Program-made: the position numbers and the translations under genes | Shown here: piece by piece, positions 2,021 to 34,760 of the stretch | Numbering within the stretch: position 1 is the first letter of the stretch | How the letters are laid out: the number at the start of each line of letters is the position of its first letter | Origin: a virus | IMG/VR virus record: IMGVR_UViG_3300042563_002443 | DNA length: 64,000 bases | Direction: 5' to 3' (one strand) | The notes under the pieces: model-generated | The model's input: the letters and a program-made list of their open reading frames with translations, nothing else | What the model was told of the DNA's origin: nothing | The model's database searches: none

Positions 2021-3877
2021 ATGGACATTTCAAACAAAATTTTAAGTGAAATTACGGTATACATGAAGTATGCAAAATATCTTCCAAACCTCAATAGAAG
2101 AGAATCTTGGGAAGAACTAGTTACAAGAAACAAACAAATGCATATTAAAAAATATCCGGCGTTAGTTGATGAAATCAATGCCGCATATGAATTTGTATAT
2201 GCAAAAAAAGTATTGCCATCAATGCGTAGTTTGCAATTTGGTGGGAAATCAATTGATATATCACCCAACCGAATTTACAATTGTGCATATTTGCCAATTG
2301 ATGACCACCGTGCATTTGGAGAAGCAATGTTTCTTTTATTAGGAGGCACGGGTGTTGGATATTCGGTTCAAAAACATCATGTAGAATTATTACCAGAAAT
2401 ACATAAACCAAATCCAAAAAAGATGCGTCGTTATTTGATTGCAGATTCAATTGAAGGATGGGCCGATGCAGTTAAGATGCTTGTTAAATCATATTTTGTT
2501 GGCGGATCATCTTACAATTTTGATTTTTCAGATATTCGTGCCAAAGGTGCAAGACTTGTTACTTCAGGAGGAAAGGCTCCAGGACCTCAACCATTAAAAG
2601 AATGTTTGATGAAACTGCAAGGAATTTTAGATACAAAAGAAGATGGCGACAAATTATCTCCAATTGAAGTTCATGATATGGTTTGCCATGTTGCAGATGC
2701 AGTATTAGCAGGTGGTATTCGTAGAGCAGCACTTATAGCATTATTTTCAGCAGATGATGAAGAAATGATTGCATGCAAATCAGGTAATTGGTGGGAAATC
2801 AATCCACAAAGAGGTCGTGCTAATAATTCAGCTACATTAATGAGACACAAATTAACAAAAGAATTCTTTATGGATCTTTGGAAGCGTGTTGAATTATCTG
2901 GAGCAGGAGAACCTGGTATATATCTTACAAATGATAAAGATTGGGGAACTAACCCATGTTGTGAAATTGCATTACGTCCATTTCAATTCTGTAACTTGTG
3001 TGAAGTAAATGCATCTGACATTGATTCTCAAGAAGATTTTGAAAATCGAGTTAGAGCAGCAGCATTTATTGGAACATTGCAAGCAGGATATACCAACTTT
3101 CATTACCTACGTCCAATTTGGCAACGTACAACTGAAAAAGATGCACTTATTGGAGTATCAATGACAGGCATTGGATCTGGAACAGTATTGGGATATGACA
3201 TGAAAGCTGCAGCAAAAACGGTTAAAACGGAAAATGAAAGAGTTGCTGCACTTATTGGTATTAATCGATCCGCACGAACAACCACAGTAAAGCCTGCAGG
3301 AACAACATCATTAACATTAGGCACAAGTTCAGGAATACATGCTTGGCACAATGATTATTATATTCGTAGAATCCGTGTTGGAAAAAATGAAGCAATTTAC
3401 ACGTATTTAGCAAAAAATCATCCCGAGCTAATTGAAGATGAATATTTCCGTCCACACGACACGGCAGTAATTTCTATACCACAACAGGCACCAGAAGGAG
3501 CAATTATGAGATTCGAGTCACCATTTCAATTATTAGATCGAATCAAAAAAGTTCATTTAGAATGGGTGAAGCCAGGTCATAGATCAGGAAACAATACACA
3601 CAATGTATCGGCAACAGTTTCATTGAAAGATGATGAATGGGAATTAGCAGGTGATTGGATGTGGAACAATAGAGATCATTATAACGGCCTATCAGTTTTA
3701 CCATATAATGGCGGAACCTATATTCAAGCCCCATTTGAAGATTGCACCAAAGAAACATATGAATCAATGATGAAATCTTTGAAGGGTATTGATTTGAGTC
3801 AAGTAATTGAATTGGATGATAATACAGACCTATCAGGCGAATTGGCTTGTGCAGGCGGAGCGTGTGAGATTAAATAA
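2021..3877 (+). CDS. nrdJ: class II (adenosylcobalamin-dependent) ribonucleotide reductase
   Basis: YNCAY, TNPCCEI, CNLCE, TTVKPAGT, C-terminal CAGGACEI; monomeric RTPR size. Confidence 0.92.
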   Translation: MDISNKILSEITVYMKYAKYLPNLNRRESWEELVTRNKQMHIKKYPALVDEINAAYEFVYAKKVLPSMRSLQFGGKSIDISPNRIYNCAYLPIDDHRAFGEAMFLLLGGTGVGYSVQKHHVELLPEIHKPNPKKMRRYLIADSIEGWADAVKMLVKSYFVGGSSYNFDFSDIRAKGARLVTSGGKAPGPQPLKECLMKLQGILDTKEDGDKLSPIEVHDMVCHVADAVLAGGIRRAALIALFSADDEEMIACKSGNWWEINPQRGRANNSATLMRHKLTKEFFMDLWKRVELSGAGEPGIYLTNDKDWGTNPCCEIALRPFQFCNLCEVNASDIDSQEDFENRVRAAAFIGTLQAGYTNFHYLRPIWQRTTEKDALIGVSMTGIGSGTVLGYDMKAAAKTVKTENERVAALIGINRSARTTTVKPAGTTSLTLGTSSGIHAWHNDYYIRRIRVGKNEAIYTYLAKNHPELIEDEYFRPHDTAVISIPQQAPEGAIMRFESPFQLLDRIKKVHLEWVKPGHRSGNNTHNVSATVSLKDDEWELAGDWMWNNRDHYNGLSVLPYNGGTYIQAPFEDCTKETYESMMKSLKGIDLSQVIELDDNTDLSGELACAGGACEIK

Positions 3878-4099: not shown

Positions 4100-4780
4100 A
4101 TGATTAAACTAAAAAATTTATTATTAGAAGTACATATTGATAACAAATTCCAACGTGAATTAATTGATAGGATAAATGATGAGTATAGGGAAGATTACAA
4201 ATCATTAACACCACAAGAAATTAACGATGGTTATTGTGATATGTGGGCTTCATTGTTTGTGGATCGTTTTGGCGGAGATCATCAATGGTCTTTTGATTTT
4301 CCAAATGATCCAAATGGACATTCGTGGGTAAAATTAAATAATAAATTTTATGATGCTGAAATGACTACGGGTACAACAAAATTAATAAATTTGCCGCATT
4401 TTCAACGAGCTATAAAAAAATATGGCACTGATTGGTTAGATACTAAATTCTTTAATAATATTCAAAAAACAAAATATGATGCATCAAATATCAATAAAAT
4501 TGAGGAAATAGGACCTCAAAATTTTATTGAGATGTATTTGGATTGGCTAGAAGAGTTATTAAATGATTTAGAAGATTCTAATGATATTGAAGCCATTAAA
4601 CGGTACGATACAGTATTAAATGCTAGGTTTGCATTAGAAGATGCTGATTCTACGGAAATTATACAATATCTACAACGAAAATATGGCAATGATGTCGATC
4701 AGATAATATTAAAAATAATCGGCGATACAACAAAATATGATGCATCAGGCATTGATACACCTGGCAATCCTAACATGTAA
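4100..4780 (+). CDS. late protein with MIKLKNLLLE leader (putative internal virion protein)
   Basis: ATATTTAT motif at 4088-4095; shared leader; internal TKYDAS repeat. Confidence 0.6.
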   Translation: MIKLKNLLLEVHIDNKFQRELIDRINDEYREDYKSLTPQEINDGYCDMWASLFVDRFGGDHQWSFDFPNDPNGHSWVKLNNKFYDAEMTTGTTKLINLPHFQRAIKKYGTDWLDTKFFNNIQKTKYDASNINKIEEIGPQNFIEMYLDWLEELLNDLEDSNDIEAIKRYDTVLNARFALEDADSTEIIQYLQRKYGNDVDQIILKIIGDTTKYDASGIDTPGNPNM

Positions 4781-4841
4781 TAAGTTTGCATAAAACTTTG
4801 AAATTCCAATAAAATATATTATATTAATATAAGAACAAGTT

Positions 4842-5531
4842 ATGACAAGAAAACATCTAGAAACAGTTGCCCCTGGATATGCGAACGGTATATCATTGCA
4901 ATTAGCAGTAAAGCAAACTTTAGAAGGTCCTGACGCTCAATTAACTCAGCAAGAAAAACAACAAATAATTGATAACGCTGCATATCATTACGGTTTATTT
5001 TTAACGGCACTAGGAGTATCTTGGGAATCAGATCCAAATTCATCTAATACTCCTAATCGAGTTGCAAAAGCATATGTAAACGATTTATGGAAAGGCAGAT
5101 ATGAACCAATGTCAGACATTACTTCATTTCCAAGTGATGGGTATGACGGAATTGTATTCGAAGGCGGTATTCCATTAACATCAATGTGTAGCCATCATCA
5201 CCAAACCATTTCCGGAAAAGTTCATGTTGCATATATTCCAGCAGAAAATGGAAATGTAGTTGGATTAAGTAAAATTAATCGAGTAGTAGAACATTTCGGC
5301 AGACGCGGAGCTATACAAGAACAATTAACTGTAGCAATACAACATGCAATTGATGAACTTATAGAAGATAACAAAGGTGTTGCTGTAATGATTGAAGCAA
5401 CTCATAATTGTGTATCTTGTAGGGGAGTAAAACATATAGGCGCTTCAATGAAGACCGCAAAATTATCCGGAGCCTTTTTAGATGATGGAAATGCTAGGTC
5501 TGAATTTTATCAATTTGTAAAAGGTTATTAA
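4842..5531 (+). CDS. folE: GTP cyclohydrolase I
   Basis: TPNRVAK, SMCSHH, GLSKINR, QEQLT, HNCVSCRG. Confidence 0.95.
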   Translation: MTRKHLETVAPGYANGISLQLAVKQTLEGPDAQLTQQEKQQIIDNAAYHYGLFLTALGVSWESDPNSSNTPNRVAKAYVNDLWKGRYEPMSDITSFPSDGYDGIVFEGGIPLTSMCSHHHQTISGKVHVAYIPAENGNVVGLSKINRVVEHFGRRGAIQEQLTVAIQHAIDELIEDNKGVAVMIEATHNCVSCRGVKHIGASMKTAKLSGAFLDDGNARSEFYQFVKGY

Positions 5532-5830
5532 TGAAAAGATTACACGTAAAATTAATTAAATGGATATCCAATAAATTTGGATACAAGATTGCAATGCTTA
5601 AAGCAGCAAACGGAACAACAACTGTTGAAGGAGATATTGAACTATTAAGATATGTTGATATATCCGGATATTTCTTTAAGAAAAAACCAATTTCTAGAAT
5701 ACAAGCTTCTAGAGCTCCAAGATCAGCCAAAGAAATGTTTTTAGCTGAACCAGTTCCTAATATTGATAATGTTGAACCGATAGTAAAACTTACATCGAAG
5801 CAACTTAAAGATTTACAAATAATAAAATAA
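5531..5830 (+). CDS. hypothetical protein
   Basis: ORF coupled to folE (TAATG). Confidence 0.6.
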   Translation: MKRLHVKLIKWISNKFGYKIAMLKAANGTTTVEGDIELLRYVDISGYFFKKKPISRIQASRAPRSAKEMFLAEPVPNIDNVEPIVKLTSKQLKDLQIIK

Positions 5831-5833
5831 ACT

Positions 5834-6298
5834 ATGGCAAAGTATAATTCAACAAAATTATTTGATGGTTACTCAACTTGTTTCCGGCAATGGCGAGCAG
5901 AGGATACTCATTGCAAATTCTTACATGGATATGCAGTATCTTTTAAAGTTTGGTTCGAAGGCGAATTAGATCATCGTAATTGGGTATGGGACTTTGGTGG
6001 TATGAAGCGATCTAAAACTAAAATTGCTGGAATGTCTCCTATAGAATATTTTTCATTTTTGTTAGATCATACTACAGTTGTAGCTATTGATGATCCATAT
6101 TTAGAGAAATTTCAACAAATGGATGAAGATGGTATCATACAATTACGCATACTACCGGCAACAGGATGTGAAAAATTTGCAGAACATTTATATTATATAA
6201 TCAATGCATTCTTAAAAGAAGAAACACAAAGTAGAGTAAAAGCAATAAAAGTAGAAGTTTATGAACACGAACGAAACAGCGCAAGCTACAGTGAATAA
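5834..6298 (+). CDS. queD: 6-carboxy-5,6,7,8-tetrahydropterin synthase
   Basis: HCKFLHGY, WVWDFG, LDHT, CEKFAE, VYEHERNSA. Confidence 0.88.
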   Translation: MAKYNSTKLFDGYSTCFRQWRAEDTHCKFLHGYAVSFKVWFEGELDHRNWVWDFGGMKRSKTKIAGMSPIEYFSFLLDHTTVVAIDDPYLEKFQQMDEDGIIQLRILPATGCEKFAEHLYYIINAFLKEETQSRVKAIKVEVYEHERNSASYSE

Positions 6299-6662
6299 TG
6301 ATACGTATGTATCACTTTATGAATATTTAGGTAAAGGGTCTCGAGACACCGGAGTTGGAAAACTAGTTTCGGCCGAAGCATTAAAACGTGGTATTAAACC
6401 TCAAGTTAAATTGCTGCCTAAAGAAATGCAAAGGCCAGAATTTAATTCAGTACAAGCATACCCAATGTCATTCTTAGATGAATACTTTGCTAATAATCTA
6501 GAACATGATATGACGCCATTTGTACGAAGATCTGCATTAACTATAGTACAAGCAAGAATTGATACCCTAGAAAAAAATTATGCAGAGTTAATTAAACTAC
6601 TGCCAAATGCAACAATTGAATTAACAGCAGAAGATACACAAGACGACGATTTACCATTTTAA
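6291..6662 (+). CDS. hypothetical protein with SSB-like DDDLPF C-terminus
   Basis: GTG at 6291 overlapping the queD end (alternative ATG 6261); acidic tail EDTQDDDLPF. Confidence 0.65.
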   Translation: MNNDTYVSLYEYLGKGSRDTGVGKLVSAEALKRGIKPQVKLLPKEMQRPEFNSVQAYPMSFLDEYFANNLEHDMTPFVRRSALTIVQARIDTLEKNYAELIKLLPNATIELTAEDTQDDDLPF

Positions 6663-6664
6663 TT

Positions 6665-7438
6665 ATGAATAAAAGAATAGAAGATTACAACAAGACACTA
6701 CCAATTCTAGAACTATACCGCTGTATACAGAGTGAAGGTTCAAGATTTGGACGTCCAACAATCGCAGTAAGAACTACCGGATGTACTCACCGATGCTTTT
6801 TTGGTGAAGGAGGGTGGTGCGACAGCTGGTACACAAGTATTCATCCGGAAAAAGGAACATTTACGTTCCAGGACATTATTAACATTTATGATGAGAACCC
6901 ACACATTAAAGAAATGATGTTGACGGGTGGATCACCCACAATGCATCCAGCATTGGTAAACGAACTAACACACTTTGCACATGAAAGAGATATACTCATT
7001 ACTATTGAAACTGAAGGTAGCCATTTCGTACCTACCGACTATCCTATTGGCCTTATATCTCTCAGTCCAAAGTTTGGTAATTCTGTACCCGTACTTGGTG
7101 CTGTTACGCCTCAAGGAGCGATTGTGGATCAAAGAATGATTGATCAACATAACAAGTTTAGAATGAAGCTTGCTACAATGAGCCAGATGATTCACTTCCA
7201 TACAGATTACCATTTTAAACCAGTATGGGACGGAACGGACAAGAATCTACAAGAAATTGAAAACATTCGCACTCTACTTAATATCCCAAAAGACAAAACA
7301 TATATCATGCCCGCAGGAGATACTAGAGAAACTCTTGTAGAGATGTATCCACTCGTATTCGATATGTGTGCTGAGAAGGGATATAACATGACCGGCAGAG
7401 ACCATATAATTGCATTTGACACTAAACGAGGAGTATAA
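6665..7438 (+). CDS. queE: 7-carboxy-7-deazaguanine synthase (radical SAM)
   Basis: IQSEG, RTTGCTHRC...WCDSWY, TGGSP, IETEG, SLSPK. Confidence 0.9.
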   Translation: MNKRIEDYNKTLPILELYRCIQSEGSRFGRPTIAVRTTGCTHRCFFGEGGWCDSWYTSIHPEKGTFTFQDIINIYDENPHIKEMMLTGGSPTMHPALVNELTHFAHERDILITIETEGSHFVPTDYPIGLISLSPKFGNSVPVLGAVTPQGAIVDQRMIDQHNKFRMKLATMSQMIHFHTDYHFKPVWDGTDKNLQEIENIRTLLNIPKDKTYIMPAGDTRETLVEMYPLVFDMCAEKGYNMTGRDHIIAFDTKRGV

Positions 7439-7499
7439 TGAACTACACAGTAACAACAACATTTGGAAATAACGTAAAAATTACATATATTATAACAAA

Positions 7500-7751
7500 A
7501 TGAAAAAGATACTTTATTTTACAGCAGATTGGTGCGGACCATGCAAAATGATTAAACCACAGCTTCTAGAAGCTTCTAATCAAATATCAATAACATTTAT
7601 CGATGTAGATACAAATTCATCAACCGCAGAACGATACAATGTTAAAAATATACCTTGTGCTATATTAATTGATTTAAATGGCCAAGAAAATGGAAGATTG
7701 GTTGGATCAAATATATCTAAACAATCAGTAATAAATTTATATAACAAATAA
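7500..7751 (+). CDS. thioredoxin
   Basis: WCGPC active site. Confidence 0.92.
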   Translation: MKKILYFTADWCGPCKMIKPQLLEASNQISITFIDVDTNSSTAERYNVKNIPCAILIDLNGQENGRLVGSNISKQSVINLYNK

Positions 7752-7767
7752 AAAAAAAGAATCAGTT

Positions 7768-8067
7768 ATGAATTGGAAACCAATTGGAGATCAAGTACTC
7801 CTAAAACAACTAGAAAAACAAGACAAAACAAAGAGTGGTATCATTATAATGAACTCATTGGATGATTATATTGAATGTGATGTTATGGCCGCAGGAGACG
7901 GGTTATTTACGCAAACAGGTACAAAAATACCAATGACTGTTAAAGTTGGAGATCGCATAAAAATCTATTCCGGAAATTTAGGAGCACAAAAGAAAGTGCA
8001 AGTAGAAAATAACGATTTTATTTTGGTTCGAGAACATGAAATTGCTATGATAAATACAAAACCATGA
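7768..8067 (+). CDS. groES: co-chaperonin GroES
   Basis: KPIGDQVLL, KTKSGII, PMTVKVGD. Confidence 0.88.
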   Translation: MNWKPIGDQVLLKQLEKQDKTKSGIIIMNSLDDYIECDVMAAGDGLFTQTGTKIPMTVKVGDRIKIYSGNLGAQKKVQVENNDFILVREHEIAMINTKP

Positions 8068-8300
8068 TTGAAATCTTAGGGTGGCTTAGTACAACCTTAG
8101 TTTTAGCTGGATATGTATCAAATGCTAGAGGGTGGACTAAGACAGCCATGATTACCTGGATTATAGGAGATACTGGATGGATTACGTATGACTTTTTTAT
8201 TGATAATTTTAGTCATCTTGTATTAAGTTTAGTTATTATAGCAATTAATGTTTACGGAATTTATAGATTATGGAAAAACTTATCAGTCAAGAAAAAATAG
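8064..8300 (+). CDS. small 3-TM membrane protein (PnuC/SemiSWEET-half-like)
   Basis: Hydrophobic helices IEILGWLSTTLVLAG...WIIGDTGW...INVYGIYRLW. Confidence 0.55.
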   Translation: MIEILGWLSTTLVLAGYVSNARGWTKTAMITWIIGDTGWITYDFFIDNFSHLVLSLVIIAINVYGIYRLWKNLSVKKK

Positions 8301-8776
8301 CACACCGAGTAAAACGGTTAGCAAAAGAAATTTCAAAAGATCATATACAAAGCGGTAACACGTTGCCACCAATAATGATTTGCATATTAAATGGTTCTAT
8401 ACATTTCTTTTCAGATTTAATTAGGGCAATGAAAATTGATTGTGAAATTGATTTCATTCGATTAAAATCGTACAAAGGACAAGATAATTCAGGCGGTATA
8501 CAAGTCCTTAAAGGATTGGAATTAGAATTAAAAGGTCGTCGAGCATATATTGTTGATGACATTTGCGATTCTGGCAGCACACTATTAGAAGCACTGTTTA
8601 TGTGCAATAGTAAATTAGTACAAGAAGTTAGAGTTGTTACATTGTTGAAACGCAAAGATGGTGTCGATATGACTGATTTTTGCGGATTTACTATCGACAA
8701 AGAATGGGTTGTGGGCTATGGGCTTGACAATAATGGAACACAACGAGAATTACCACACATATATAAATTAAATTAA
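8270..8776 (+). CDS. hpt: hypoxanthine/guanine phosphoribosyltransferase
   Basis: ILNGS..FFSDL, KSY, PRPP loop IVDDICDSGSTL, WVVGYGLD. Confidence 0.9.
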   Translation: MEKLISQEKIAHRVKRLAKEISKDHIQSGNTLPPIMICILNGSIHFFSDLIRAMKIDCEIDFIRLKSYKGQDNSGGIQVLKGLELELKGRRAYIVDDICDSGSTLLEALFMCNSKLVQEVRVVTLLKRKDGVDMTDFCGFTIDKEWVVGYGLDNNGTQRELPHIYKLN

Positions 8777-11295
8777 TGTATAAAGCAATCGGTTATGATA
8801 AAAAAGCGGGCATCATGCACGTTTGGGATGATGAATTAGGACATCGCAAATTTCCTTTTCAGGCATATGGATATTTACCAAATCCAAATGGAACATATCA
8901 AGCACTTGACGGAACACGATTGAATCAAGTACCTGGCAATCATCGAGATAATCCTAAATCATATGAATCTGACTTAAATGAAGAAGTTAGAACATTGATT
9001 GATTTATATTATGAATCAGATGAGCCGTCTAAAGGACATAAAGATTTCTTTTTTGATATTGAAACTGCAAAAGATGAAAATGGCTTCAGCACAATACAAG
9101 ATGTTCGCACCGCAATTACTTCGATTGCATATTATGATAAAGCAGGAAAAGATCGAAGAGTATTGATCTTAGACGAACAAGGTCGCATCAAAGAACGTGA
9201 AATACAAGGCGAAGGATATGCAATAGAAATATTCCGCAATGAAAAAGATCTATTAACTAGATTTATCAACATATTTGCACAAATACAACCAACAGTTATA
9301 ACCGGGTGGAATACAGACGGATATGATGTTCCTTATTTGTTAGGCCGATGCAAAAAAGTATTGGGTGCACAAGCAATCAAGAAATTTTCTCCTGCCGGCA
9401 TAGTAGAACAAGGCAGAACCGGTAAATGGAAGATACTTGGAGTTTCTAGTTTAGATTACATTAAATTGTATAAAAACTTTACATATACCGAACTACCTAA
9501 TTATCGATTAGACACAGTTGCTAAAAAAGAATTGGATCGAGGTAAAGTTGAATATGATGGAGACTTGGATACATTGTTTACCCAAGATATTCATAAATTT
9601 GCATATTATAATATGACGGATGTTGATCTTGTTTATGAAATGGATGAAAAGCTTCAACTTTTAAATTTAGCAAGATCGATTTGTCACAAAGGGCATGTTC
9701 CATATGAAGATGTATATTATGCATCCAAATATTTGGATGGTGCTGCCATTGTTGATTTAAAACGCAATGGATTTGTTGCACCGAACAAGCAATTTAGATT
9801 TATTGAAGAAGAAACAATGGCAGATGCATTAGCTGGTGCATATGTAATGGCACCTGTACCTGGCCTGTATAAATGGATATATGACTTAGATTTAACTTCA
9901 TTGTATCCAAGCATCATTATGACTGCAAATATATCTCCAGAAACTAAAGTAGGAGTTGTAGAAAATTGGAATCAAGAATGCATGTTAAACTCAGATTCAA
10001 TGCCGGCTACAATAACATTGGCTTCTGGTAAAACACAACAAGTTGATAATGTTAAAACATGGTTGGCACAACACAATTATAGTATTGCTAGCAACGGCGC
10101 TACATATAACAATGAACAACGAGGGTTTCTTCCAACTATTCTAGAAAAATGGTTTAATGAACGTGTTATCTTTAAAGATAAGCGTGACACATTTAAATTT
10201 GGTACAGAAGAATATAAATTTTATGATGCATTGCAATTAACACAAAAAGTATTGCTTAATTCATTTTATGGAGTTTTAGGACTTAAAACATTTCGTTTCT
10301 ATGATTTAGATAATGCCGGAGCTATTACAGCAGTAGGTCAAAGTGTAATAAAATTTTCAGCTAAGGTTATTAATAACTATTACAAAAAAGAATTGGGAGT
10401 TGACCACTTTATTAATGATAGCGGAGACAAAGCAGAATTTGCATTTTACACTGATACGGATTCAACCTTTTGTAGCAGTTTGCCATTAATTGAACACCGA
10501 TTTCCTGGATGTGACACTAACGATGAAACATTCATGATTGAACAAACTAATGCAATTGCATCTGAAATACAAACAACGGTTAATACAATGTATGACCAAT
10601 ATGCAAAAGTATTCCATAATACAACCGCACATCGATTCCAAATTAAACAAGAATATATTGCAAAATCCGGTTTATGGATTGCCAAAAAAAGATATGCCCA
10701 ATGGGTTATATTCAAAGAAGGCAAATCTACGGATAAATTGGATGTAAAAGGATTAGATGTTGTTAGATCCAGTTTCCCGGAAGATTTCAAAAAGATAATG
10801 AAAGAAACATTGTGGTATATCCTTAAAGGAAGAAACAAGCAAGATACTTCAACATTGATACATAACTTTAAAAATAACATTAAAAGTTCCAAAGTATTGA
10901 ATGTAATGAAGAATTCAAGTGTTAAAGAATTATCTAAATATATCAAAAAACGTAAACCGTTTACCGGTTATATAAAAGGATCGACAGCACACGTAAAAGC
11001 CGCAATTAATTTTAATGATTTATTGAGTACATTAACTACGGATATATTACCTATATCAGACGGCGAAAAAGTAAAGTGGGGCTATTTAGTAGGCAATCCG
11101 TACGGGTTTGAAACTATTGCATTACGAGGTTATTTAGATCCACCCGAAATAGTTGCATTTGCAGAACAATACATTGATCACAATAAAATGTTCACGGCAG
11201 ACCTAAGCAACAAATTCAATGATTTCTATGCAGCAATGAGTTGGGGTGCATTACCAGAAAATAACAATGCAAAAAAGTTTTTTAACTTTGGATAA
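8776..11295 (+). CDS. family B DNA polymerase
   Basis: Exo FDIET/GWNTDGYD; pol DLTSLYPS, KVLLNSFYG, YTDTDS, KKRY; no intein-sized insert. Confidence 0.96.
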   Translation: MYKAIGYDKKAGIMHVWDDELGHRKFPFQAYGYLPNPNGTYQALDGTRLNQVPGNHRDNPKSYESDLNEEVRTLIDLYYESDEPSKGHKDFFFDIETAKDENGFSTIQDVRTAITSIAYYDKAGKDRRVLILDEQGRIKEREIQGEGYAIEIFRNEKDLLTRFINIFAQIQPTVITGWNTDGYDVPYLLGRCKKVLGAQAIKKFSPAGIVEQGRTGKWKILGVSSLDYIKLYKNFTYTELPNYRLDTVAKKELDRGKVEYDGDLDTLFTQDIHKFAYYNMTDVDLVYEMDEKLQLLNLARSICHKGHVPYEDVYYASKYLDGAAIVDLKRNGFVAPNKQFRFIEEETMADALAGAYVMAPVPGLYKWIYDLDLTSLYPSIIMTANISPETKVGVVENWNQECMLNSDSMPATITLASGKTQQVDNVKTWLAQHNYSIASNGATYNNEQRGFLPTILEKWFNERVIFKDKRDTFKFGTEEYKFYDALQLTQKVLLNSFYGVLGLKTFRFYDLDNAGAITAVGQSVIKFSAKVINNYYKKELGVDHFINDSGDKAEFAFYTDTDSTFCSSLPLIEHRFPGCDTNDETFMIEQTNAIASEIQTTVNTMYDQYAKVFHNTTAHRFQIKQEYIAKSGLWIAKKRYAQWVIFKEGKSTDKLDVKGLDVVRSSFPEDFKKIMKETLWYILKGRNKQDTSTLIHNFKNNIKSSKVLNVMKNSSVKELSKYIKKRKPFTGYIKGSTAHVKAAINFNDLLSTLTTDILPISDGEKVKWGYLVGNPYGFETIALRGYLDPPEIVAFAEQYIDHNKMFTADLSNKFNDFYAAMSWGALPENNNAKKFFNFG

Positions 11296-11343
11296 CAAAT
11301 TGTTTTTTTTTTGTGTTATATTTATATGTAAATAAGGAAAATT

Positions 11344-11634
11344 ATGATAAAATTAAAAACCGTACTTGCAGAAAATATGCGCCGATTTGGTACGAAAAAC
11401 TTAAACGAAGGAATGTTCAGTAATTTTTTACAAAGTATATTAGGAAAAACTGATGCGATGGTTGATTTTCTTACTATTTTAGAATTTGCAAGAAAAGATA
11501 AAGACGGAGAAAACGCCGATGAAGCGGTTCAGTATTTAATGGATAAACATAATGTATCTGCAGATGAAGCGTTAAAAACTGTTACCCATGTTTATGAAAA
11601 ATTTGGTCCATGGATCGAATTAACTAGAAAATAA
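11344..11634 (+). CDS. late cassette protein with LAENMRRFGTKNLNE leader (copy 1)
   Basis: ATATTTAT at 11318; 43-bp leader identical to 18337-18379. Confidence 0.75.
   Translation: MIKLKTVLAENMRRFGTKNLNEGMFSNFLQSILGKTDAMVDFLTILEFARKDKDGENADEAVQYLMDKHNVSADEALKTVTHVYEKFGPWIELTRK
11368..11410 (+). repeat. 43-bp perfect direct repeat, copy 1 (copy 2 at 18337-18379)
   Basis: GCAGAAAATATGCGCCGATTTGGTACGAAAAACTTAAACGAAG. Confidence 0.95.
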
Positions 11635-11677
11635 ATAATTATTTATATGTAAGATAAAGAACCAAAATGACAAATTA

Positions 11678-11707
11678 AAGTACTAGCAGCAATGTTAGTA
11701 CTTTTTT
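11678..11707 (+). terminator. intrinsic terminator
   Basis: AAGTACTAGCA-GCAA-TGTTAGTACTT, 11-bp stem with GNRA loop, then T tract. Confidence 0.85.
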
Positions 11708-11720: not shown

Positions 11721-11749
11721 TTGGATAATATAAATACATTTATTATAAT
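11721..11749 (+). promoter_or_regulatory. TTGGAT-N17-TATAAT promoter of the dpdA operon
   Basis: Exact 17-nt spacer; ATG 5 nt downstream. Confidence 0.7.
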
Positions 11750-11754: not shown

Positions 11755-12186
11755 ATGATTGGTTATAAAACACATTGGTACGGCAAAGAAATAGAAGGCC
11801 GTTACACTGATATCGAAACATTGTTTATTGCAGACATTAAAGCACTAGACAGAATTGTAGCAGGAAAAAATCCACACGTTTATTTTTGTTCCGGTGCAAC
11901 CGCCCAATTGATCGACGATGATCGATGGGCTACGGTATTCAGAATGATTTCTGATACTAGTTTCATAACAATCGAAGTTACTCCCGGTATGTTAGAAAAG
12001 ATACCACCAATGATTCGAATTCGCGCACACATCTTGTTAATGTTAAATTGTACTGATGCCGCATTGTTAAAACAATCAGACAGCATTAAGGTTGTATATG
12101 CAGATTATTCTTTGTATTGTACAACGGTACATAATATGCAACATGTTGTCCCAGATATGTATAAATTTGATAGAGATAAACAATGA
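11755..12186 (+). CDS. hypothetical protein heading the dpdA operon
   Basis: WYGKEIEG...ETLF...HVYF; overlapping operon with the next four genes. Confidence 0.7.
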   Translation: MIGYKTHWYGKEIEGRYTDIETLFIADIKALDRIVAGKNPHVYFCSGATAQLIDDDRWATVFRMISDTSFITIEVTPGMLEKIPPMIRIRAHILLMLNCTDAALLKQSDSIKVVYADYSLYCTTVHNMQHVVPDMYKFDRDKQ

Positions 12187-12584
12187 TAAGAGGAGTTATA
12201 GCAGGAAACTTTGATGTAATACATCCAGGATACATTGCCATGTTTGATGAATGCAAAAAGCACTGCGATAGATTAATAGTGTGTCTACATGAAGATCCAT
12301 CCGTTGAACGACCAGAAAAACTTAAACCAATATTACATTGGAGCGACCGAGTAAAGATACTTGATTCACTTAGGCAAGTTGATTTTGTATTTCCATATCA
12401 AACAGAAGCTGATCTATATGAAGCTCTAGTTAAAGGAGACTTTGATGTTAGGTTCTTAGGCGATGATTATGTAGGAAAAACTTATACCGGTTATGAATTA
12501 AACATTCCTATAAAATACCTAAACAGAGACCATGGATGGTCAACAACTAAATACAAACAATTAATAGCAGATTCATTAAAATGA
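12183..12584 (+). CDS. cytidylyltransferase (TagD / HIGH-family)
   Basis: GNFDVIHPGY, GDDY, RDHGWSTT. Confidence 0.85.
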   Translation: MIRGVIAGNFDVIHPGYIAMFDECKKHCDRLIVCLHEDPSVERPEKLKPILHWSDRVKILDSLRQVDFVFPYQTEADLYEALVKGDFDVRFLGDDYVGKTYTGYELNIPIKYLNRDHGWSTTKYKQLIADSLK

Positions 12585-12931
12585 AATACAGCGTAGTAGT
12601 AACATTTAACATTGAAGGATTTCATAATTGGCCTGATGCAAAAGAAATATTTCCACAAGTAGCATTCTTATCGGATAGACATAGACATATGTTTGGATTC
12701 CGTTGTTATGCAAACGTAACACATACTGATCGCGATGAGGAATTTATATTGTTAAACAGAAAAATACAAAAAGGATTGCGAATTGGATTTTCTGGATCTG
12801 AAACAAATGTATTAGAATTTGGATCAATGTCGTGTGAAATGATTGGAGAATGGTTGTTAGAATCATTTCCAACGTTGTATAAAGTAGAAGTTTGGGAAGA
12901 TTGGGAGAATGGAGCAATAATTGAAAGATAA
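12581..12931 (+). CDS. QueD-paralogue T-fold protein, DpdL-like (putative CDG decarboxylase)
   Basis: EGFHNWP, LSDRHRHMF (LxxxHRHxF), SCEM, EVWEDWENGA. Confidence 0.65.
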   Translation: MKYSVVVTFNIEGFHNWPDAKEIFPQVAFLSDRHRHMFGFRCYANVTHTDRDEEFILLNRKIQKGLRIGFSGSETNVLEFGSMSCEMIGEWLLESFPTLYKVEVWEDWENGAIIER

Positions 12932-12932
12932 T

Positions 12933-13970
12933 ATGAAAATATTTTTAGTAGACTTAGAATCAATACCGACACGATATACTTGCGAGTGGAAGACACATGT
13001 TCCACAATTATTGCGTGATAATGGATTTGATGTTCAAGTTATAGAAGGAGATCATACAATTCCAGAATCAACAACACCTGGTGCATTTTTGAACTTTGGT
13101 GGTACTAACATGTACAAAGCAACACAGCTTCACAAGTTGTCTGAATTATTTACATTAGGTAAGATTACCGCAGGAGACCATATCATTTTTACAGATGCAT
13201 GGCACCCAGCTATTATCAATGTAAAATATATGAGTGAACTTCTAAATATTCCGGTTGTAATGCACGGACTTTGGCACGCGGGTTCATATGACCCGAATGA
13301 TTTTTTAGGTCGGCTCGTAGGAGATAAACCATGGATTAGGCACGCTGAACAAGCCTTTATTGGAGCACTAGATCATAATTGGATTGCAACCGCAGCACAT
13401 TTTCAAATGATATGTAAAACATATGATGTATTTTTAAATTCAACGTTTGATCAAACAGGCTGGCCAATGGAATATACCCATAATATGATTACGCCTAAAC
13501 CATTTAATGAAAAAGAAAATATTATTGTTTTCCCGCACCGAATAGCACCTGAAAAACGATTAGATTTGTTTCAAGAATTAGCATCGCAGCCAGAATTAGC
13601 ACATTATCAATTTATTGTAGCAATGGATCTAAATTTGACTAAAACACAATATCATGAACTTCTTCAAAGAGCAAAGTTTGCAGTATCATTTGCAGATCAA
13701 GAAACATTGGGAATTTCAATGTATGAATCAGCTTGTGCAGGAGCATGTACAATTGTTCCTAATAGATTATCATATATGGAAATGTATCATCCTATGTTTA
13801 AACATGCAGATTCAGTAAATGAGGCTGTGGCTGCAATATTAAAATATGAACAACAAGACTTAACAAATGATATTGCTAAATTAACAAATTATTTACATGA
13901 CCGATTTTTTTCAGCAACAAGATTAATTAATTTACTAAAAGAATATAAAAACAATGAAAGAACAAGATAA
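12933..13970 (+). CDS. GT-B glycosyltransferase in the dpdA operon
   Basis: FPHRIAPEK, QETLGISMYE (GT4-like E-x7-E), PNRLSYMEM. Confidence 0.8.
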   Translation: MKIFLVDLESIPTRYTCEWKTHVPQLLRDNGFDVQVIEGDHTIPESTTPGAFLNFGGTNMYKATQLHKLSELFTLGKITAGDHIIFTDAWHPAIINVKYMSELLNIPVVMHGLWHAGSYDPNDFLGRLVGDKPWIRHAEQAFIGALDHNWIATAAHFQMICKTYDVFLNSTFDQTGWPMEYTHNMITPKPFNEKENIIVFPHRIAPEKRLDLFQELASQPELAHYQFIVAMDLNLTKTQYHELLQRAKFAVSFADQETLGISMYESACAGACTIVPNRLSYMEMYHPMFKHADSVNEAVAAILKYEQQDLTNDIAKLTNYLHDRFFSATRLINLLKEYKNNERTR

Positions 13971-15216
13971 GCGGTTCATATATTTTCCGTCGTTGTCTGC
14001 AGGCTCAATGGTCTCGGCATTCAAGAAAGATATGAAATTTGAAAATGGAGACCCGGTAAAGTTCTTCGACTCAAGATATCCAGATAAGTGGAGGCACCCA
14101 TATTTTCTAATCACAGCAGGACACCATTACAAGAAAATGGATTTCCGAGACACGATGGGCTTAGAAAAAGATGTTCTAGTATTTGGAGATTCAGGAGGAT
14201 ACCAAATAGCAACAGGAGCATTACCATATAGCAACGAATTGCGCGAAAAAATATTTCATTGGTTAGAAGCTAATAGTGATGTAGCAGCAAACTTAGATAT
14301 TCCACCTAAAACAAAATATCGAAATAAATTTGCAGAATGTGCTGACATTAGTTATGACAATTTTGCTTATTTTGAAAAACATCAAAGCGGTAAGACAAAA
14401 TACCTTAACATGTTGCAAGGCTCTAACACTGATGAATATACTTGGTGGTATCATAAATTTAAACATTTTGATTTTCAAGGTTGGGCAATTGGAGGTCCAC
14501 AAAAATTAGTAGACTTTATGTTTGCGGTTGCATTGATGCTCAAAGAAAAAACATTTGAAAATCCTAGACTAGAATATTTGCACTTATTGGGTATTAGCAA
14601 AATATCCGACTTTTTTATTCTAGCAACATTGCAAAAATTAATGAATAAAAATTATGGCAATAGAATCTATGTAACAACGGATTCATCATCGCCAGGACAA
14701 TATCCGGTATTTGGAACATATCTTCATTCAGCAAATTATAAAACACAAACCTTTTCGGAATTGTATTTTCCTAAAAATGCTGAATATAGAAGACAAGCTC
14801 ATATTCGTCAAGGAAAAATTGGAGAAGTATCTATTGATCTATCACAACATGTACCATGTGCATTACATTGTCCAGCATGCACCGACTTTACATATGATTT
14901 GCTAGGAGGAAAAACAGATGCTGGATTAGATCGATATTCACAAGAAGCTATGCCTAGAATGGTTGTTCACAATGTGCATTTATATGTGCAATGTGCAGAA
15001 GAAATCAATCAACTAGTAGACAGCCATGTAGAATTGCTAGAAACAGTAATACCAAGAGACTTGTATGATGTTATCTTGTCACTGCATGAAATGTTTGCCG
15101 ATCCTGACGCAGCATTACAAACATATGAAAAATATATTAAAACATATAAAAAGTTTGGTGGAAGTAGTATATCAACCACCGATGCCGAAAATTTCAATAA
15201 ATACTTTACATTTTAA
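13954..15216 (+). CDS. dpdA: DpdA-like DNA guanine transglycosylase (TGT fold)
   Basis: DSGGYQ, NLDIPP, LQG, GWAIGG, HLLG, TDSSSP, Zn site CALHCPAC...HN. Confidence 0.8.
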   Translation: MKEQDKRFIYFPSLSAGSMVSAFKKDMKFENGDPVKFFDSRYPDKWRHPYFLITAGHHYKKMDFRDTMGLEKDVLVFGDSGGYQIATGALPYSNELREKIFHWLEANSDVAANLDIPPKTKYRNKFAECADISYDNFAYFEKHQSGKTKYLNMLQGSNTDEYTWWYHKFKHFDFQGWAIGGPQKLVDFMFAVALMLKEKTFENPRLEYLHLLGISKISDFFILATLQKLMNKNYGNRIYVTTDSSSPGQYPVFGTYLHSANYKTQTFSELYFPKNAEYRRQAHIRQGKIGEVSIDLSQHVPCALHCPACTDFTYDLLGGKTDAGLDRYSQEAMPRMVVHNVHLYVQCAEEINQLVDSHVELLETVIPRDLYDVILSLHEMFADPDAALQTYEKYIKTYKKFGGSSISTTDAENFNKYFTF

Positions 15217-21051: not shown

Positions 21052-22545
21052 ATGGAATTACCGAAATTACAAAAGTTCGATCCGAACAAACCAACAAAAA
21101 AGAAAATTTTATTGTTAGGCGATGATTTTCGTTTACCATCCGGTATCGGAACAATCAGCAAAGAAATTATTTTTAATACAGTTAAAGAATTTGATTGGGT
21201 TCAATTAGGAGCCGCAATGCAACATCCTGATGCAGGGCAAGCATTTGACCTTTCTGCTGAAGTCGTCAAAGAAACAGGCATTGAAGATGCATCTGTTAAA
21301 TTGATTCCATGGAACGGTTATGGAGATCGAAATATTCTTTTTGCAATTATCAATCGAGAACAACCAGACGCAATCCTACACTTTACAGATCCTCGTTATT
21401 GGACATGGTTATATGCAATCGAACATGAAATAAAAACAACATTCAATATTCCAATTACATATTATTCTATTTGGGATGATTTACCATATCCTATGTGGAA
21501 TGCTCCTTTTTACGGTAGCTGCGATATGATTATGGGAATAAGCAAACAATCAGATAATATACATAGAGAAGTTCTTAAACAGAACGGATTTGGGGTGATT
21601 AATTATGATGAATCAGACGATTTACCGGCAATAAAAAAATGGAACTCTGTTTTAACCGGATATGTACCTCACGGATTGAATCATAACATGTTTAAACCAT
21701 TAGATTCAAACGATGCCGGATATATTGCAATGCACAAACAAATTAAAGATGCAAACAAAGTTGATTTTGTTGTAATGTGGAATAATCGAAACATAAGAAG
21801 AAAACAACCAGGCGATGTTATTTTAGCATTCAAAACATTTGTAGATTTGTTACCAACCGATCAACAAAGCAAAGTAGCATTATTAATGCATACACAACCG
21901 GTTGATGAAAATGGAACAGACCTTAAGGCTGTTTGGAAAGCTATAGCTCCTAATTGTAAAGTAATTTTTTCAGAACAAAAATTATCAACACCTGATCTTA
22001 ATGCAATGTATAATGTTGCAGATGTAGTAATAAACATTGGGTCTAATGAGGGATGGGGACTTAGTTCAACTGAAGCAATGTTGTCAGGAACACCGATTAT
22101 TAACAATGTAACAGGAGGATTGCAGGATCAATGTGGATTTGAAGATGAAAACGGAGAATGGCTTCGATTCGATGGCGATTTTGCAACTAACCATACCGGC
22201 AAATACAAGAAACATGGTATATGGGTTAAACCAGTATTTCCTAGCAATAGAAGTTTGCAAGGATCACCGCAAACACCATATATCTTTGATGACCGCGCAA
22301 AATATGAAGATGTTGCAGACGCAATTGCATATTGGTACGAACTTTCTCAAGAAAAACGTGCAGCGTGTGGGTTCGAAGGAAGAACATGGGCATTAGCTAA
22401 TGGTTTAACGGCAGAACAAATGGGACAAAAAATGATTTCAATGTATCGCGATTTATTTGCAATGAATAGAGAATTTAGACCGTTATACACTGTAACTAAA
22501 ACACAAACAATTAAATATGAACGAACAGGAATAGTAGCACAATGA
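21052..22545 (+). CDS. GT4-like glycosyltransferase
   Basis: NRNIRRKQ, NEGWGLSSTEA, TGGLQDQ. Confidence 0.88.
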   Translation: MELPKLQKFDPNKPTKKKILLLGDDFRLPSGIGTISKEIIFNTVKEFDWVQLGAAMQHPDAGQAFDLSAEVVKETGIEDASVKLIPWNGYGDRNILFAIINREQPDAILHFTDPRYWTWLYAIEHEIKTTFNIPITYYSIWDDLPYPMWNAPFYGSCDMIMGISKQSDNIHREVLKQNGFGVINYDESDDLPAIKKWNSVLTGYVPHGLNHNMFKPLDSNDAGYIAMHKQIKDANKVDFVVMWNNRNIRRKQPGDVILAFKTFVDLLPTDQQSKVALLMHTQPVDENGTDLKAVWKAIAPNCKVIFSEQKLSTPDLNAMYNVADVVINIGSNEGWGLSSTEAMLSGTPIINNVTGGLQDQCGFEDENGEWLRFDGDFATNHTGKYKKHGIWVKPVFPSNRSLQGSPQTPYIFDDRAKYEDVADAIAYWYELSQEKRAACGFEGRTWALANGLTAEQMGQKMISMYRDLFAMNREFRPLYTVTKTQTIKYERTGIVAQ

Positions 22546-23777
22546 GAAAAGTAGTTATAGCGTCGCCAGTAGCGACACAATCAGGTTATGGACATCACGC
22601 GCGTGAAATTATAACAAATATTATTGAACAACGAGGATCTGAATGGGACGTAAAACTAGTTTCATTGCCATGGGGACATACTCCAATGACATATCCAATT
22701 TCCGTAGATTTACAATTACGTATAATTGCATTGCCATTAAATGAACAGCCTGAAGTTTGGATTCAAGTATCAGTGCCAAATGAATTTCAACCGGTTGGAA
22801 AATATAATATTGGAGTTACTGCCGGCACCGAAGGAGATATTTGTCCAGAAGCATGGATCGATAATCTTAATGCAATGCAGTTAATTATTGTACCGTCTGA
22901 ATTTACTAAAGCAGTATTTGAAAACACAGCAAAACAAAAGAACAAATTAATTACGACGCCTATAGAAGTAGTCCCAGAATATTTTGATGAAACCATATAC
23001 AACAACAAATCAATTACAGCTTCTATACCAGACTTAAATTCAATTGAAGAATCATTTGCATTCCTATCGGTAGGACATTGGTTGCAAGGTGATGCTGGAG
23101 AAGACCGCAAAAATATTAGTGGTATGTTGCATTGTTTCTTCAATACATTTAAAGATACTAAAAATCCACCTGCTTTAATCATGAAAACTAGTGGCGCAAC
23201 ATATAGTATTATGGACAAAATGGATATTGAAAATAGAATCAATCAATTCCGTGATATGTTTCCTAATGCAAAATTACCAAATGTATACTTAGTTCATGGA
23301 GAATTAACAGATGAAGAAATGAATGCATTGTATAATCATCCAAAAGTTAAAGCAATGGTTTCTTTTACAAAAGCAGAAGGATTTGGAAGACCATTATTAG
23401 AGTTTTCAACTACCAGCAAGCCAATCATTGCTCCACATTATTCCGGCCAAGCAGACTTTTTGAAAAAAGATTTTATATGTGCCTTACCGGGACAATTGAC
23501 ACCAATTCATCCGTCTGCTGCAAATGAATTTTTAATTGCTGAAGCAAAATGGTTTACTCCTGATTACGGGCAAGCCATGGCTATGATGCAAGATGTACAA
23601 AAAAATTATAAAAAATGGTGTGAATTAGCAAAACGTCAACGATATTTTGTTAATACTACATTTACTCGTACAGCTGTTGCTAAAACATATGAAACTGTGT
23701 TGAGTGTTATTGATGACGGCGTTAACAAGATTCCAAAGGCTATTGAATTAAAATTACCTAAATTGCAAAAGATATGA
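22542..23777 (+). CDS. GT4-like glycosyltransferase
   Basis: SGYG, DRKNI, EGFGRPLLE. Confidence 0.85.
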   Translation: MRKVVIASPVATQSGYGHHAREIITNIIEQRGSEWDVKLVSLPWGHTPMTYPISVDLQLRIIALPLNEQPEVWIQVSVPNEFQPVGKYNIGVTAGTEGDICPEAWIDNLNAMQLIIVPSEFTKAVFENTAKQKNKLITTPIEVVPEYFDETIYNNKSITASIPDLNSIEESFAFLSVGHWLQGDAGEDRKNISGMLHCFFNTFKDTKNPPALIMKTSGATYSIMDKMDIENRINQFRDMFPNAKLPNVYLVHGELTDEEMNALYNHPKVKAMVSFTKAEGFGRPLLEFSTTSKPIIAPHYSGQADFLKKDFICALPGQLTPIHPSAANEFLIAEAKWFTPDYGQAMAMMQDVQKNYKKWCELAKRQRYFVNTTFTRTAVAKTYETVLSVIDDGVNKIPKAIELKLPKLQKI

Positions 23778-24397
23778 AAATAACATATGCCGTTACGGTA
23801 TGTAATGAGTTTATTGAAATTCAAAGACTTGTGCATCACTTACTTAAGAATAAACGAGCACAGGATGACATTGTTATCTTATATGACTCTAAAAACGGAA
23901 ATGCTGATATTGAAACATTTCTCCGGTCACATAGCGTAAATGGAGAATTTATGTGGCACAAGAGTGAGTTTGAAGGCCATTTTGCTAATTGGAAAAATAA
24001 ACTAACTAGCTACTGTACAGGAGATTATATTTTTCAAATAGATGCAGATGAACTACCTACTAAAACATTACTAGAATATTTACCTGATATTATTGAGGGT
24101 AACCCAACAGTAGATGTGTTATTAGTACCTCGAATTAACACAGTAGAAGGATTAACAGATAAACATATTCAACAATGGGGATGGAATGTTAATTCAAATG
24201 GATGGGTAAATTTCCCCGACTATCAATGGCGCATATGGCAAAATAAACCAGAAATTAAATGGAAAAATAAAGTACATGAGGTGTTAGCCGGTTATAAAAT
24301 AATGTCTACATTACCTTCGAAAGAAGAGTATTGTTTACATCACCCGAAAACAATAGATAAACAAGAAAAACAAAATAACTATTACGATACGTTATAG
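23774..24397 (+). CDS. GT2-family glycosyltransferase
   Basis: IDADE, PDYQWRI, VHE. Confidence 0.85.
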   Translation: MKITYAVTVCNEFIEIQRLVHHLLKNKRAQDDIVILYDSKNGNADIETFLRSHSVNGEFMWHKSEFEGHFANWKNKLTSYCTGDYIFQIDADELPTKTLLEYLPDIIEGNPTVDVLLVPRINTVEGLTDKHIQQWGWNVNSNGWVNFPDYQWRIWQNKPEIKWKNKVHEVLAGYKIMSTLPSKEEYCLHHPKTIDKQEKQNNYYDTL

Positions 24398-24402
24398 ATG
24401 AT

Positions 24403-26544: not shown

Positions 26545-26548
26545 ATTT

Positions 26549-29164: not shown

Positions 29165-29176
29165 AAATACAAAAAT

Positions 29177-29794: not shown

Positions 29795-29847
29795 AGGTTA
29801 ATTTGGATTAATCAAATAATTTAATTATATTAATAAAAAGAATTACT

Positions 29848-33194: not shown

Positions 33195-33195
33195 T

Positions 33196-34757: not shown

Positions 34758-34760
34758 CTT

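Follow-up and report, generated by a model that had tools for sequence, protein, structure and literature searches.

A DNA-modification module that encodes a glycosyltransferase (GT) alongside 7-deazaguanine genes was analysed in a stretch of viral DNA of 64,000 nucleotides, IMG/VR record IMGVR_UViG_3300042563_002443 (hereafter the window), in which it occupies positions 11,755 to 15,216. The window is an AT-rich (~33% G+C) part of a T4-like phage genome whose genes lie almost all on the + strand. An earlier note, made from the letters of the DNA alone, had read the five genes at this place as an operon that may decorate a deazaguanine base in DNA, inferred to be CDG or plain 7-deazaguanine, with a sugar or polyol, using a GT and a cytidylyltransferase. 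We find that the locus is a variant of the known phage 7-deazaguanine systems, and that the part of the proposal concerning the GT is supported, while the cytidylyltransferase as a conserved partner is not. The GT gene lies between the genes for DpdL, a QueD paralogue, and for a long transglycosylase with the fold of the tRNA-guanine transglycosylases (TGTs). Judging from gene content and conservation, we lean, with little more than even confidence, towards a phage whose DNA carries a sugar-decorated 7-deazaguanine in place of guanine.

The three central genes encode DpdL (116 aa; 12581-12931, + strand), the GT (349 aa; 12921-13970, +) and the TGT-fold enzyme (420 aa; 13954-15216, +), and are preceded by genes for a 143-aa protein and a cytidylyltransferase-like protein. 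All five open reading frames (ORFs) are present on the + strand at the positions first assigned to them, with overlaps of 4, 4, 11 and 17 bases between successive genes. A DNA search with the operon matched none of 50,697 phage records, which makes the phage new at the DNA level.

The strongest evidence for the involvement of the GT comes from its genomic company. IMG/VR supplied 305 relatives, and 80 loci were read. A GT-B gene is found between DpdL and TGT in every IMG/VR locus that holds both (55 of 55). In three of these (L085, L086 and L087) the gene in question encodes a 404-aa homologue, at 4788-6002 in L087, which is 25% identical to the GT of the window, whereas DpdL remains 91% and the TGT 72% identical. 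The divergence of the GT at the same place, next to a DpdL that has hardly changed, points to an allele that has been swapped at a fixed position, and such a swap may change the sugar.

Among cultured phages, DpdL was found in 13 lineages. The GT adjoins DpdL and/or a long (416-540 aa) DSGG-type TGT in six of them, in four gene orders: DpdA-GT-DpdL-QueE in Acidovorax phage ACP17, TGT-GT-DpdL in the PA5oct-like Pseudomonas jumbo phages, DpdL-GT in Sinorhizobium phage Phosso, GT-TGT in Xanthomonas phages BUDD/X1 and in Burkholderia phage BCSR5, and TGT-DpdL-GT in Synechococcus phage BUCT-ZZ01. No homologue of the GT was found in the other seven DpdL lineages. In the phiST group, MA9V-3, D479 and Ahp1 the neighbour of DpdL is a short protein of DpdA3 type and a GT homologue is missing, and in Bakedbeans, RHph_I1_18 and Roos the proteins neighbouring DpdL have no BLAST similarity to any DpdA tested.

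The same pairing is seen outside phages. A search of bacterial and metagenome-assembled genome (MAG) contigs with a GT profile returned 17 loci, and a TGT of the window/PA5oct type adjoins the GT in 15 of them; these 15 are all of the loci with flank on both sides, the remaining two being too short to show the neighbour. Eight alphaproteobacterial chromosomal contigs (L106-L113, at ~6400-11300 in each) hold a YhhQ-like transporter, a GT and a TGT, and include those of the isolates Methylobacterium sp. NFXW15, Pseudooctadecabacter jejudonensis CECT 8397 and Thalassobius sp. I31.1. The membrane protein of ~200 aa that precedes the GT in all eight is a distant relative of the queuosine-precursor transporter YhhQ, with scores that fall under the cut-offs (26.4 vs 27.2 bits for PF02592, 24.2 vs 50.95 for TIGR00697), and an uncharacterised protein of ~585 aa follows in six of the eight. 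The module resembles the bacterial Dpd systems (DpdA/DpdB/DpdC, which place preQ0 and 7-amido-7-deazaguanine, ADG, in DNA) in having a TGT-superfamily enzyme, here predicted to act on DNA, and in occurring in chromosomal islands. It differs in that no PADLOC Dpd model matches either the window proteins or the GT-TGT islands, and in that the islands hold the transporter, GT, TGT and, in six of the eight, the ~585-aa protein rather than dpdB-K; indeed, PADLOC gave no match of any kind for the five window proteins or the bacterial island proteins. DpdL itself is adjacent to the module in Methylobacterium sp. NFXW15 and lies 3.5 kb away in a Lentilitoribacter MAG. Also near the module are a Dcm-type methylase in P. 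jejudonensis and a VapE-like primase in Methylobacterium.

The earlier note had named lack of conservation beside dpdA in relatives as an outcome that would speak against it; for the GT, conservation was seen in the IMG/VR loci, in the six cultured lineages and in the bacterial and MAG loci alike. The GT is thus a conserved core member of the module and not a passenger.

The protein models agree with this picture. The first assignment of a GT-B glycosyltransferase is upheld by a Pfam match above its cut-off (PF00534, 28.0 vs 26.4 bits), by a GT-B fold in the AlphaFold2 (AF2) model (predicted local distance difference test, pLDDT, 86; predicted template-modelling score, pTM, 0.85) and by an intact EX7E motif (E261-TLGISMY-E269). 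Residues E269, R207 and K212 are invariant; in GT4 enzymes the Arg and Lys residues usually bind the donor diphosphate. A Foldseek search with the model recovered BshA, MshA, glycogen synthase and PimA, all with probability 1.00, as well as PglA, SenB and a tetrahydrobiopterin (BH4) glucosyltransferase (5zes, 9v0l), so that the nearest solved folds are GT4 retaining enzymes with mostly small-molecule acceptors. The only viral models close to it were the ACP17 homologue (TM-score 0.87) and a protein of 370 aa, probably the homologue from BCSR5 (0.81). We see no match for the GT in a single-sequence search of the Protein Data Bank (PDB). Taken together, the model and motif indicate a GT4-type retaining GT-B glycosyltransferase. 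As most homologues begin at the methionine of MKIFLVD, the real start of the gene is probably the ATG at 12933. A role as a hydroxymethyl-pyrimidine glucosyltransferase was considered and rejected, the ThyA homologue in a complete relative being an ordinary thymidylate synthase (TIGR03284, 314.6 bits).

For the 420-aa protein, the AF2 model has a pLDDT of 91.8, and the top 50 Foldseek matches are all tRNA-guanine transglycosylases (E ~1e-10, TM ~0.5). A profile built from 46 diverse sequences gave significant PDB matches to TGTs only, the best being archaeosine TGT 1iq8 (E 4.4e-5), with the DSGGFQ and C..C..C...HN stretches aligned; a single-sequence PDB search gave no match and a shallow profile nothing relevant. 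Residues D79 (in DSGG), D115, D243 and N340 are invariant among the 46 diverse relatives, and H339 is nearly so. We take the three aspartates to be the general acid/base, base-binding and nucleophile residues, equivalent to D102, D156 and D280 of Z. mobilis TGT. Residues C302, C306 and C309 are invariant within the clade, and with H339 presumably form a Cys3-His zinc site. The protein has no Pfam match of its own at E 0.01, but a 72%-identical relative reaches PF01702 (28.5 vs 26.3 bits), and many relatives at ~70% identity carry a precomputed PF01702 assignment. The modelled fold and conserved residues thus argue for a TGT-fold transglycosylase equipped with the catalytic aspartates and a zinc site, in line with the first description of the protein as a TGT-fold DpdA.

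In sequence, the protein is closer to phage DpdA than to E. coli Tgt. BLAST aligned it with a 540-aa protein of PA5oct type (4e-20), with ACP17 DpdA (1e-7) and with DpdA of Stenotrophomonas phage Ps15 (1e-4), and tblastn with E. coli Tgt gave no match to it. NCBIfam models of tRNA-TGT scored 15.9 bits against a cut-off of 350. By sequence, 13954-15216 therefore does not group with the tRNA-specific enzymes, a grouping that the earlier note had named as an outcome that would speak against it. We assign the protein to a DpdA-like subfamily shared with the PA5oct-type phages (the PA5oct/Phosso-type long subfamily), with a predicted function in base exchange on DNA. The family is a large one, with 926 representative clusters (E <=0.001) among 1.84 billion metagenome proteins, indicating that it is common in nature. 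Two other assignments were tried and discarded. The 420-aa protein is not a DpdA3 of the phiST type, which is 259 aa long and gave no BLAST alignment with it at E 0.01, and the ACP17 transglycosylase is not a DpdA3 either, but DpdA2-like (34% identical to VH7D and nt-1). DpdL is thus coupled to several DpdA subfamilies.

The 116-aa protein, first described as a QueD paralogue with an LxxxHRHxF motif, is confirmed as DpdL by that motif and by homology to phiST CGPG_00067 (40% identity, E 4e-15). The motif reads L30-SDR-H34-R-H36-M-F38, with L30, H34, H36 and F38 invariant across 15 sequences, and it replaces the CxxxHGH of QueD; H15, E54, S84, C85, E86 and E106 are invariant as well. Alignment of the DpdL profile with phage QueD by hhalign gave a probability of 86% (E 4.8e-6) over the C-terminal 45 columns only, and a single-sequence PDB search with DpdL gave no match. 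LxxxHRHxF is the defining motif of DpdL, for which decarboxylation of 7-carboxy-7-deazaguanine (CDG) has been proposed in the literature (Cui, Hutinet et al., NAR 2023, PMC10516641). Homology thus assigns the protein to DpdL, with CDG decarboxylation as the function proposed for that family.

The genes expected to feed DpdL lie upstream on the + strand. These are folE, for GTP cyclohydrolase I (4842-5531; PF01227 E 1.9e-44, phrog_2197 5.4e-61), queD, for a 6-carboxytetrahydropterin (CPH4) synthase of the PTPS family (5834-6298; PF01242 E 4.9e-13, phrog_2389 2.1e-35) in which the C..HGY motif is kept in the alignment, and queE, for a radical-SAM CDG synthase (6665-7438; phrog_2076 7e-47, and TIGR03365 at 8e-15, under its cut-off). 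All three are confirmed as the earlier note had them. GTP is converted to CDG by FolE, QueD and QueE, and the pathway cannot proceed to preQ0 if QueC is missing. QueC was not found in the window by tblastn with E. coli and phage QueC, and neither QueC (PF06508) nor QueF (PF14489) was found in two complete relatives with terminal repeats (159.6 and 158.3 kb). No separate search was made for gat-queC, although the QueC searches would have picked up its QueC part. The combination that the earlier note had described, of folE, queD and queE with DpdL and a TGT-fold transglycosylase and without queC or queF, is therefore real. Two further ORFs are interspersed among these genes, at 5531-5830 (99 aa) and 6261-6662 (133 aa); neither has an NCBIfam match, and the 133-aa product has no Pfam or PHROG match.

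One point of comparison is Cellulophaga phage phiST, which encodes FolE, QueD, QueE, DpdL and DpdA3 and whose DNA holds plain 7-deazaguanine, as dDG (PMC10516641). The two phages share FolE, QueD and QueE without QueC, a DpdL with LxxxHRHxF, an exchanger of the TGT superfamily, and the location of the module by replication and nucleotide genes. They differ in that phiST has the short DpdA3 CGPG_00065 (259 aa), which lacks a literal DSGG and has no BLAST similarity to the 420-aa enzyme, and in that phiST has no homologue of the GT and no cytidylyltransferase gene in its cluster. ACP17 and the PA5oct-type phages have the triad of DpdL, GT and long DSGG-type TGT, with GTs 39-41% and DpdLs 31-33% identical to those of the window. 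The TGT of PA5oct belongs to the same subfamily as that of the window (E 4e-20), whereas the DpdA2-like enzyme of ACP17 is 22% identical to it. The clusters of both differ from the window in lacking the cytidylyltransferase and the 143-aa protein, and those of the PA5oct-like phages add a short protein resembling short-chain dehydrogenases/reductases (SDR) and a phosphoribosyltransferase (PRTase).

A separate observation concerns the position of the DpdL and GT genes in ACP17. Where ACP17 has DpdA-GT-DpdL-QueE (L002:6715-10211), Ps15 has QueC-DpdA-QueE (L097:4252-7143), and the two DpdA proteins are 32.8% identical. As these cassettes occupy the same place, the preQ0 (QueC) route and the route through DpdL and GT look like exchangeable alternatives.

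From these data we propose a pathway in which FolE, QueD and QueE would make CDG from GTP, and DpdL, a T-fold protein without the catalytic Cys of QueD, would produce the base put to use from CDG or from an intermediate next to it. The GT4-type retaining GT would then transfer a sugar from a nucleotide sugar to the deazapurine, and the long TGT-fold enzyme would swap guanine in DNA for this base. We slightly favour addition of the sugar to the free base, ahead of its insertion, on the weak hints given by the acidic nature of the GT, its small-molecule folds and the transporter-GT-TGT order in bacteria; the sugar may instead be added once the base is in DNA. Candidate acceptor sites are N2 and the C7 and C8 positions of the electron-rich pyrrole ring, and the acceptor may also be some DpdL product that is not 7-deazaguanine. 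In the phage studied here the cytidylyltransferase-like protein may supply the activated donor, and the GT allele swap seen in three relatives would change the sugar. The role of the modification is probably to protect phage DNA from restriction.

Published work on PA5oct is in line with this reading. Enzymes whose sites contain G fail to cut PA5oct DNA, which is attacked by nucleases that sense hypermodified DNA, the base not being identified; one of the nucleases that attack PA5oct DNA targets phages with modified G (PMC12191111). On a broader scale, we regard it as an evenly balanced question whether at least seven phage lineages, including an abundant uncultured T4-like clade, together with some alphaproteobacteria, have a glycosylated 7-deazapurine in their DNA, made by a GT4 enzyme working with DpdL and a long DpdA-type exchanger, with the sugar varied by GT allele swap and the choice of donor widened by optional genes. 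The sugar-bearing DNA bases known to us so far are pyrimidines, and the 7-deazaguanine DNA bases that we know of carry small groups at C7 (H, carboxy, cyano, amido, and aminomethyl with its methyl and formyl forms). To our knowledge a glycosylated deazapurine, if it exists, would be the first sugar-bearing purine in natural DNA, and would represent new chemistry that needs a new enzyme reaction. It would also tell what modification guanine undergoes in the PA5oct-type phages, which are relevant to therapy. Bases of this kind influence restriction, CRISPR and sequencing, and are tools for DNA labelling. Six phage lineages in culture carry the module, as do at least three bacterial isolates, which makes it bench-testable.

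Several points weigh against a sugar-bearing base in DNA. Plain 7-deazaguanine offers no obvious hydroxyl or amine handle, and a C- or N-glycoside, or another acceptor, has to be assumed. Co-location of the genes shows functional linkage and not a substrate, and for this clade the sugar-bearing base is proposed from its genes. The GT homologues are all acidic (pI 5.4-6.2) and, among the Foldseek matches listed, show no special likeness to the T4 DNA glucosyltransferases, so that action of the GT on DNA is not indicated. The decarboxylase activity of DpdL is likewise a proposal, and the published test of it in E. coli failed. A separate glycan-biosynthesis island of 15 kb lies elsewhere in the window, and sugar genes are therefore not rare in this genome. 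Finally, no glycosylated deazaguanine was found in a literature search whose coverage was incomplete, most subscription journals lying outside it.

In an alternative account the DNA holds a plain known base, either dDG as in phiST or dCDG, the form of CDG in DNA, while the GT acts outside DNA on a pterin or deazapurine by-product or intermediate, or on a protein or host target. We consider this account unlikely, though of real weight. It agrees with the arrival of phiST at dDG with DpdL and a DpdA alone (PMC10516641), with the acidity of the GTs and with nearest folds that act on small molecules, among them the BH4 glucosyltransferase. It agrees less well with a GT that stays beside DpdL and TGT through many changes of gene order in phages and bacteria, and whose alleles replace one another at one fixed place. 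The location of the bacterial GT between a base transporter and the TGT is also hard to explain if the product of the GT never meets the TGT. Lastly, phiST and ACP17 genes expressed in E. coli gave no dDG, which led the authors to suggest that other enzymes may be needed (PMC10516641). In the case of ACP17, dpdL and dpdA were used and no GT is named among the genes (PMC10516641); a glycosylated base, if true, would explain why no product was seen.

A further comparison is with the T-even phages. Their glucosyl-hydroxymethylcytosine system also ties a phage GT-B enzyme to base modification, with a GT allele that varies among related phages, likely in answer to host defences. It differs in that the T-even alpha- and beta-glucosyltransferases act on a pyrimidine hydroxymethyl group that is installed before replication. 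The window shows no sign of a hydroxymethyl-pyrimidine route, its partner genes being deazapurine genes, and the T4 enzymes are absent from the fold matches listed for the GT.

A pre-replicative route to the modified base seems to us improbable. In such a route a PRTase would make a deazapurine nucleotide, which polymerase would incorporate after reduction and phosphorylation, with the GT acting on nucleotide or DNA and the TGT-like enzyme reduced to a secondary or proofreading role. An hpt-like PRTase gene is indeed present (8270-8776, + strand; PF00156 E 5.1e-23), with a stop that overlaps the start of polB, and its place upstream of polB is conserved in relatives. PRTases also adjoin QueE in the PA5oct-like phages and BUCT-ZZ01, the whole module is situated within replication genes, and CDG-specific PRTases are known from the pathways of deazapurine nucleoside antibiotics. 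Yet the TGT keeps every catalytic residue under strong conservation, as befits an active base exchanger, and no PRTase was seen in the stretches read of ACP17, BUDD and BCSR5. The hpt-like enzyme possibly salvages the guanine freed by base exchange, which would explain its presence equally well, or possibly makes a deazapurine nucleotide.

It is very improbable that the TGT-fold enzyme instead modifies tRNA and the GT decorates the tRNA base, as in the glycosylated queuosine of eukaryotes. In favour of this, queuosine is mannosylated in animals by an enzyme of the GT4 family, tRNA-guanine transglycosylases head the structural matches, and the best PDB profile match is archaeosine TGT. Against it, there is no QueC, QueF or later queuosine gene and hence no preQ1 or queuosine to decorate, the window encodes a single tRNA, tRNA-Glu(UUC), and this one does not carry queuosine, the enzyme matches phage DpdA-type proteins and neither E. 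coli Tgt nor, at the score given above, the NCBIfam tRNA-TGT models, and PA5oct, with a TGT of the same subfamily, has restriction-resistant DNA.

Turning to the accessory genes, the cytidylyltransferase-like protein (133 aa; 12183-12584, + strand) belongs to the PF01467 family (E 7.9e-11; 42.7 bits vs 21) and matches phrog_7878 (1.5e-34). The family assignment of the earlier note therefore stands, while its HIGH motif reads HPGY and not HxGH (GNFDVIHPGY). The second His is Tyr in 29 of 29 relatives and in a homologue fused to a GHMP kinase. The TagD and RfaE-II equivalog models (TIGR01518 and TIGR02199) fall far under their cut-offs; scores were 56.9 vs 165.4 bits for the glycerol-3-phosphate cytidylyltransferase equivalog and 59.6 vs 181.5 for the heptose-1-phosphate adenylyltransferase. 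Both scores fall equally far short and point to neither substrate.

The gene was found in 29 of the 50 relatives that cover its position. In the 21 that lack it, DpdL begins 0-30 bases after the upstream gene, save for one gap of 634 bases, and no cytidylyltransferase was found in the clusters of ACP17, the PA5oct-like phages, BUDD, BCSR5, BUCT-ZZ01 and Phosso. The cytidylyltransferase is thus not a conserved partner of the module, and a CDP-activated sugar or polyol is only an option for this phage. We regard the protein as an optional accessory whose role may be to activate the phosphate of a sugar or polyol and so to widen the supply of donors. Its family is widespread in phages with no sign of deazaguanine genes in their records (Streptomyces phages, cyanophages), and a jumbo-phage-like contig (L102) has a homologue with canonical HAGH a few kb from its triad. 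The closest phage homologue (61% identity) forms the C-terminal part of the 458-aa GHMP kinase fusion (L003:7035-8411), in the uncultured 595-kb phage LR756511.1, an arrangement that suggests a route of sugar-phosphate activation.

The glycan-biosynthesis island (21052-35909) could equally be the client of the cytidylyltransferase. The GTs encoded there are two of GT1, two of GT2, and one each of GT11, GT10, GT25 and GT4, with an RgpF-like protein. Sugar enzymes are represented by an RmlC-like epimerase, a split transketolase, an SDR epimerase, a DegT aminotransferase and a GDP-mannose 4,6-dehydratase, and methyltransferases by FkbM and one other. No flippase or polymerase was seen among the island proteins scanned. 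The island may serve glycosylation of the virion or of the host surface.

The 143-aa protein (11755-12186, + strand), in which the WYGKEIEG of the earlier note forms residues 8-15, gave no Pfam, PHROG, NCBIfam, PADLOC or PDB-profile match, and its Atlas scores (<=0.81) are at chance level. Its gene is present in 40 of 44 loci and missing in four. Residues W8, G10, E12, E14, G15, R16, D19, H41, Y43, E74, H92 and D109 are invariant in the alignment, and the acidic and His residues among them suggest that the protein is an enzyme. It is an optional accessory of the module. BLAST showed no similarity between it and the small neighbours of DpdL in phiST, MA9V-3, BUDD, BCSR5, ACP17, Phosso and the PA5oct-like phages. 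A protein of ~132-150 aa, homologous to ACP17 ASD50402.1, recurs directly upstream of DpdL in several phage-like contigs (L099:1077-1523, L101:665-1099, L102:5850-6278, L103:5995-6420 and L114:866-1321; L002:6320-6718). This is a second accessory of the module, with no BLAST relation to the 143-aa protein of the window.

The layout of the locus does not support a closed operon. Ahead of the block lie a terminator-like hairpin with a T-run (11677-11704, + strand) and, before the 143-aa gene, a sigma-70-like site, TGGATA-16-TATAAT (11722-11749, +). The earlier note had a single promoter driving the five genes; the site is there, but promoter-like sites are not enriched in the window (25 found vs 27.8 expected from shuffled sequence), and the site alone therefore proves nothing. 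A T4-type late promoter, TATAAATA at 11729-11736, was rejected on similar grounds, the motif being no more common in the window than expected (14 found vs 16.6). Downstream of 15216 are genes for the clamp, dUTPase and clamp loader. As no terminator was found 3' of 15216 and the clamp gene starts 14 bases on, transcription probably continues into the replisome genes, and the five genes form a block within the replication module.

Variable insertions are also seen in and around the block. Upstream of the hairpin, a gene for a 96-aa protein (MIKLKTVL...; orf96) occupies 11344-11634, within a cassette whose flanks at 11319-11331 and 11640-11652 are copies of TATTTATATGTAA. The cassette is missing in many relatives, where the first gene, starting 30 bases after polB, is directly the 143-aa gene. 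In one relative (L020), ORFs resembling HNH and GmrSD_C proteins, with weak Pfam matches, are found at 2917-3504 and 4373-4957, one at the junction of polB and the 143-aa gene and the other at the junction of DpdL and GT, and these look like homing endonucleases invading the module.

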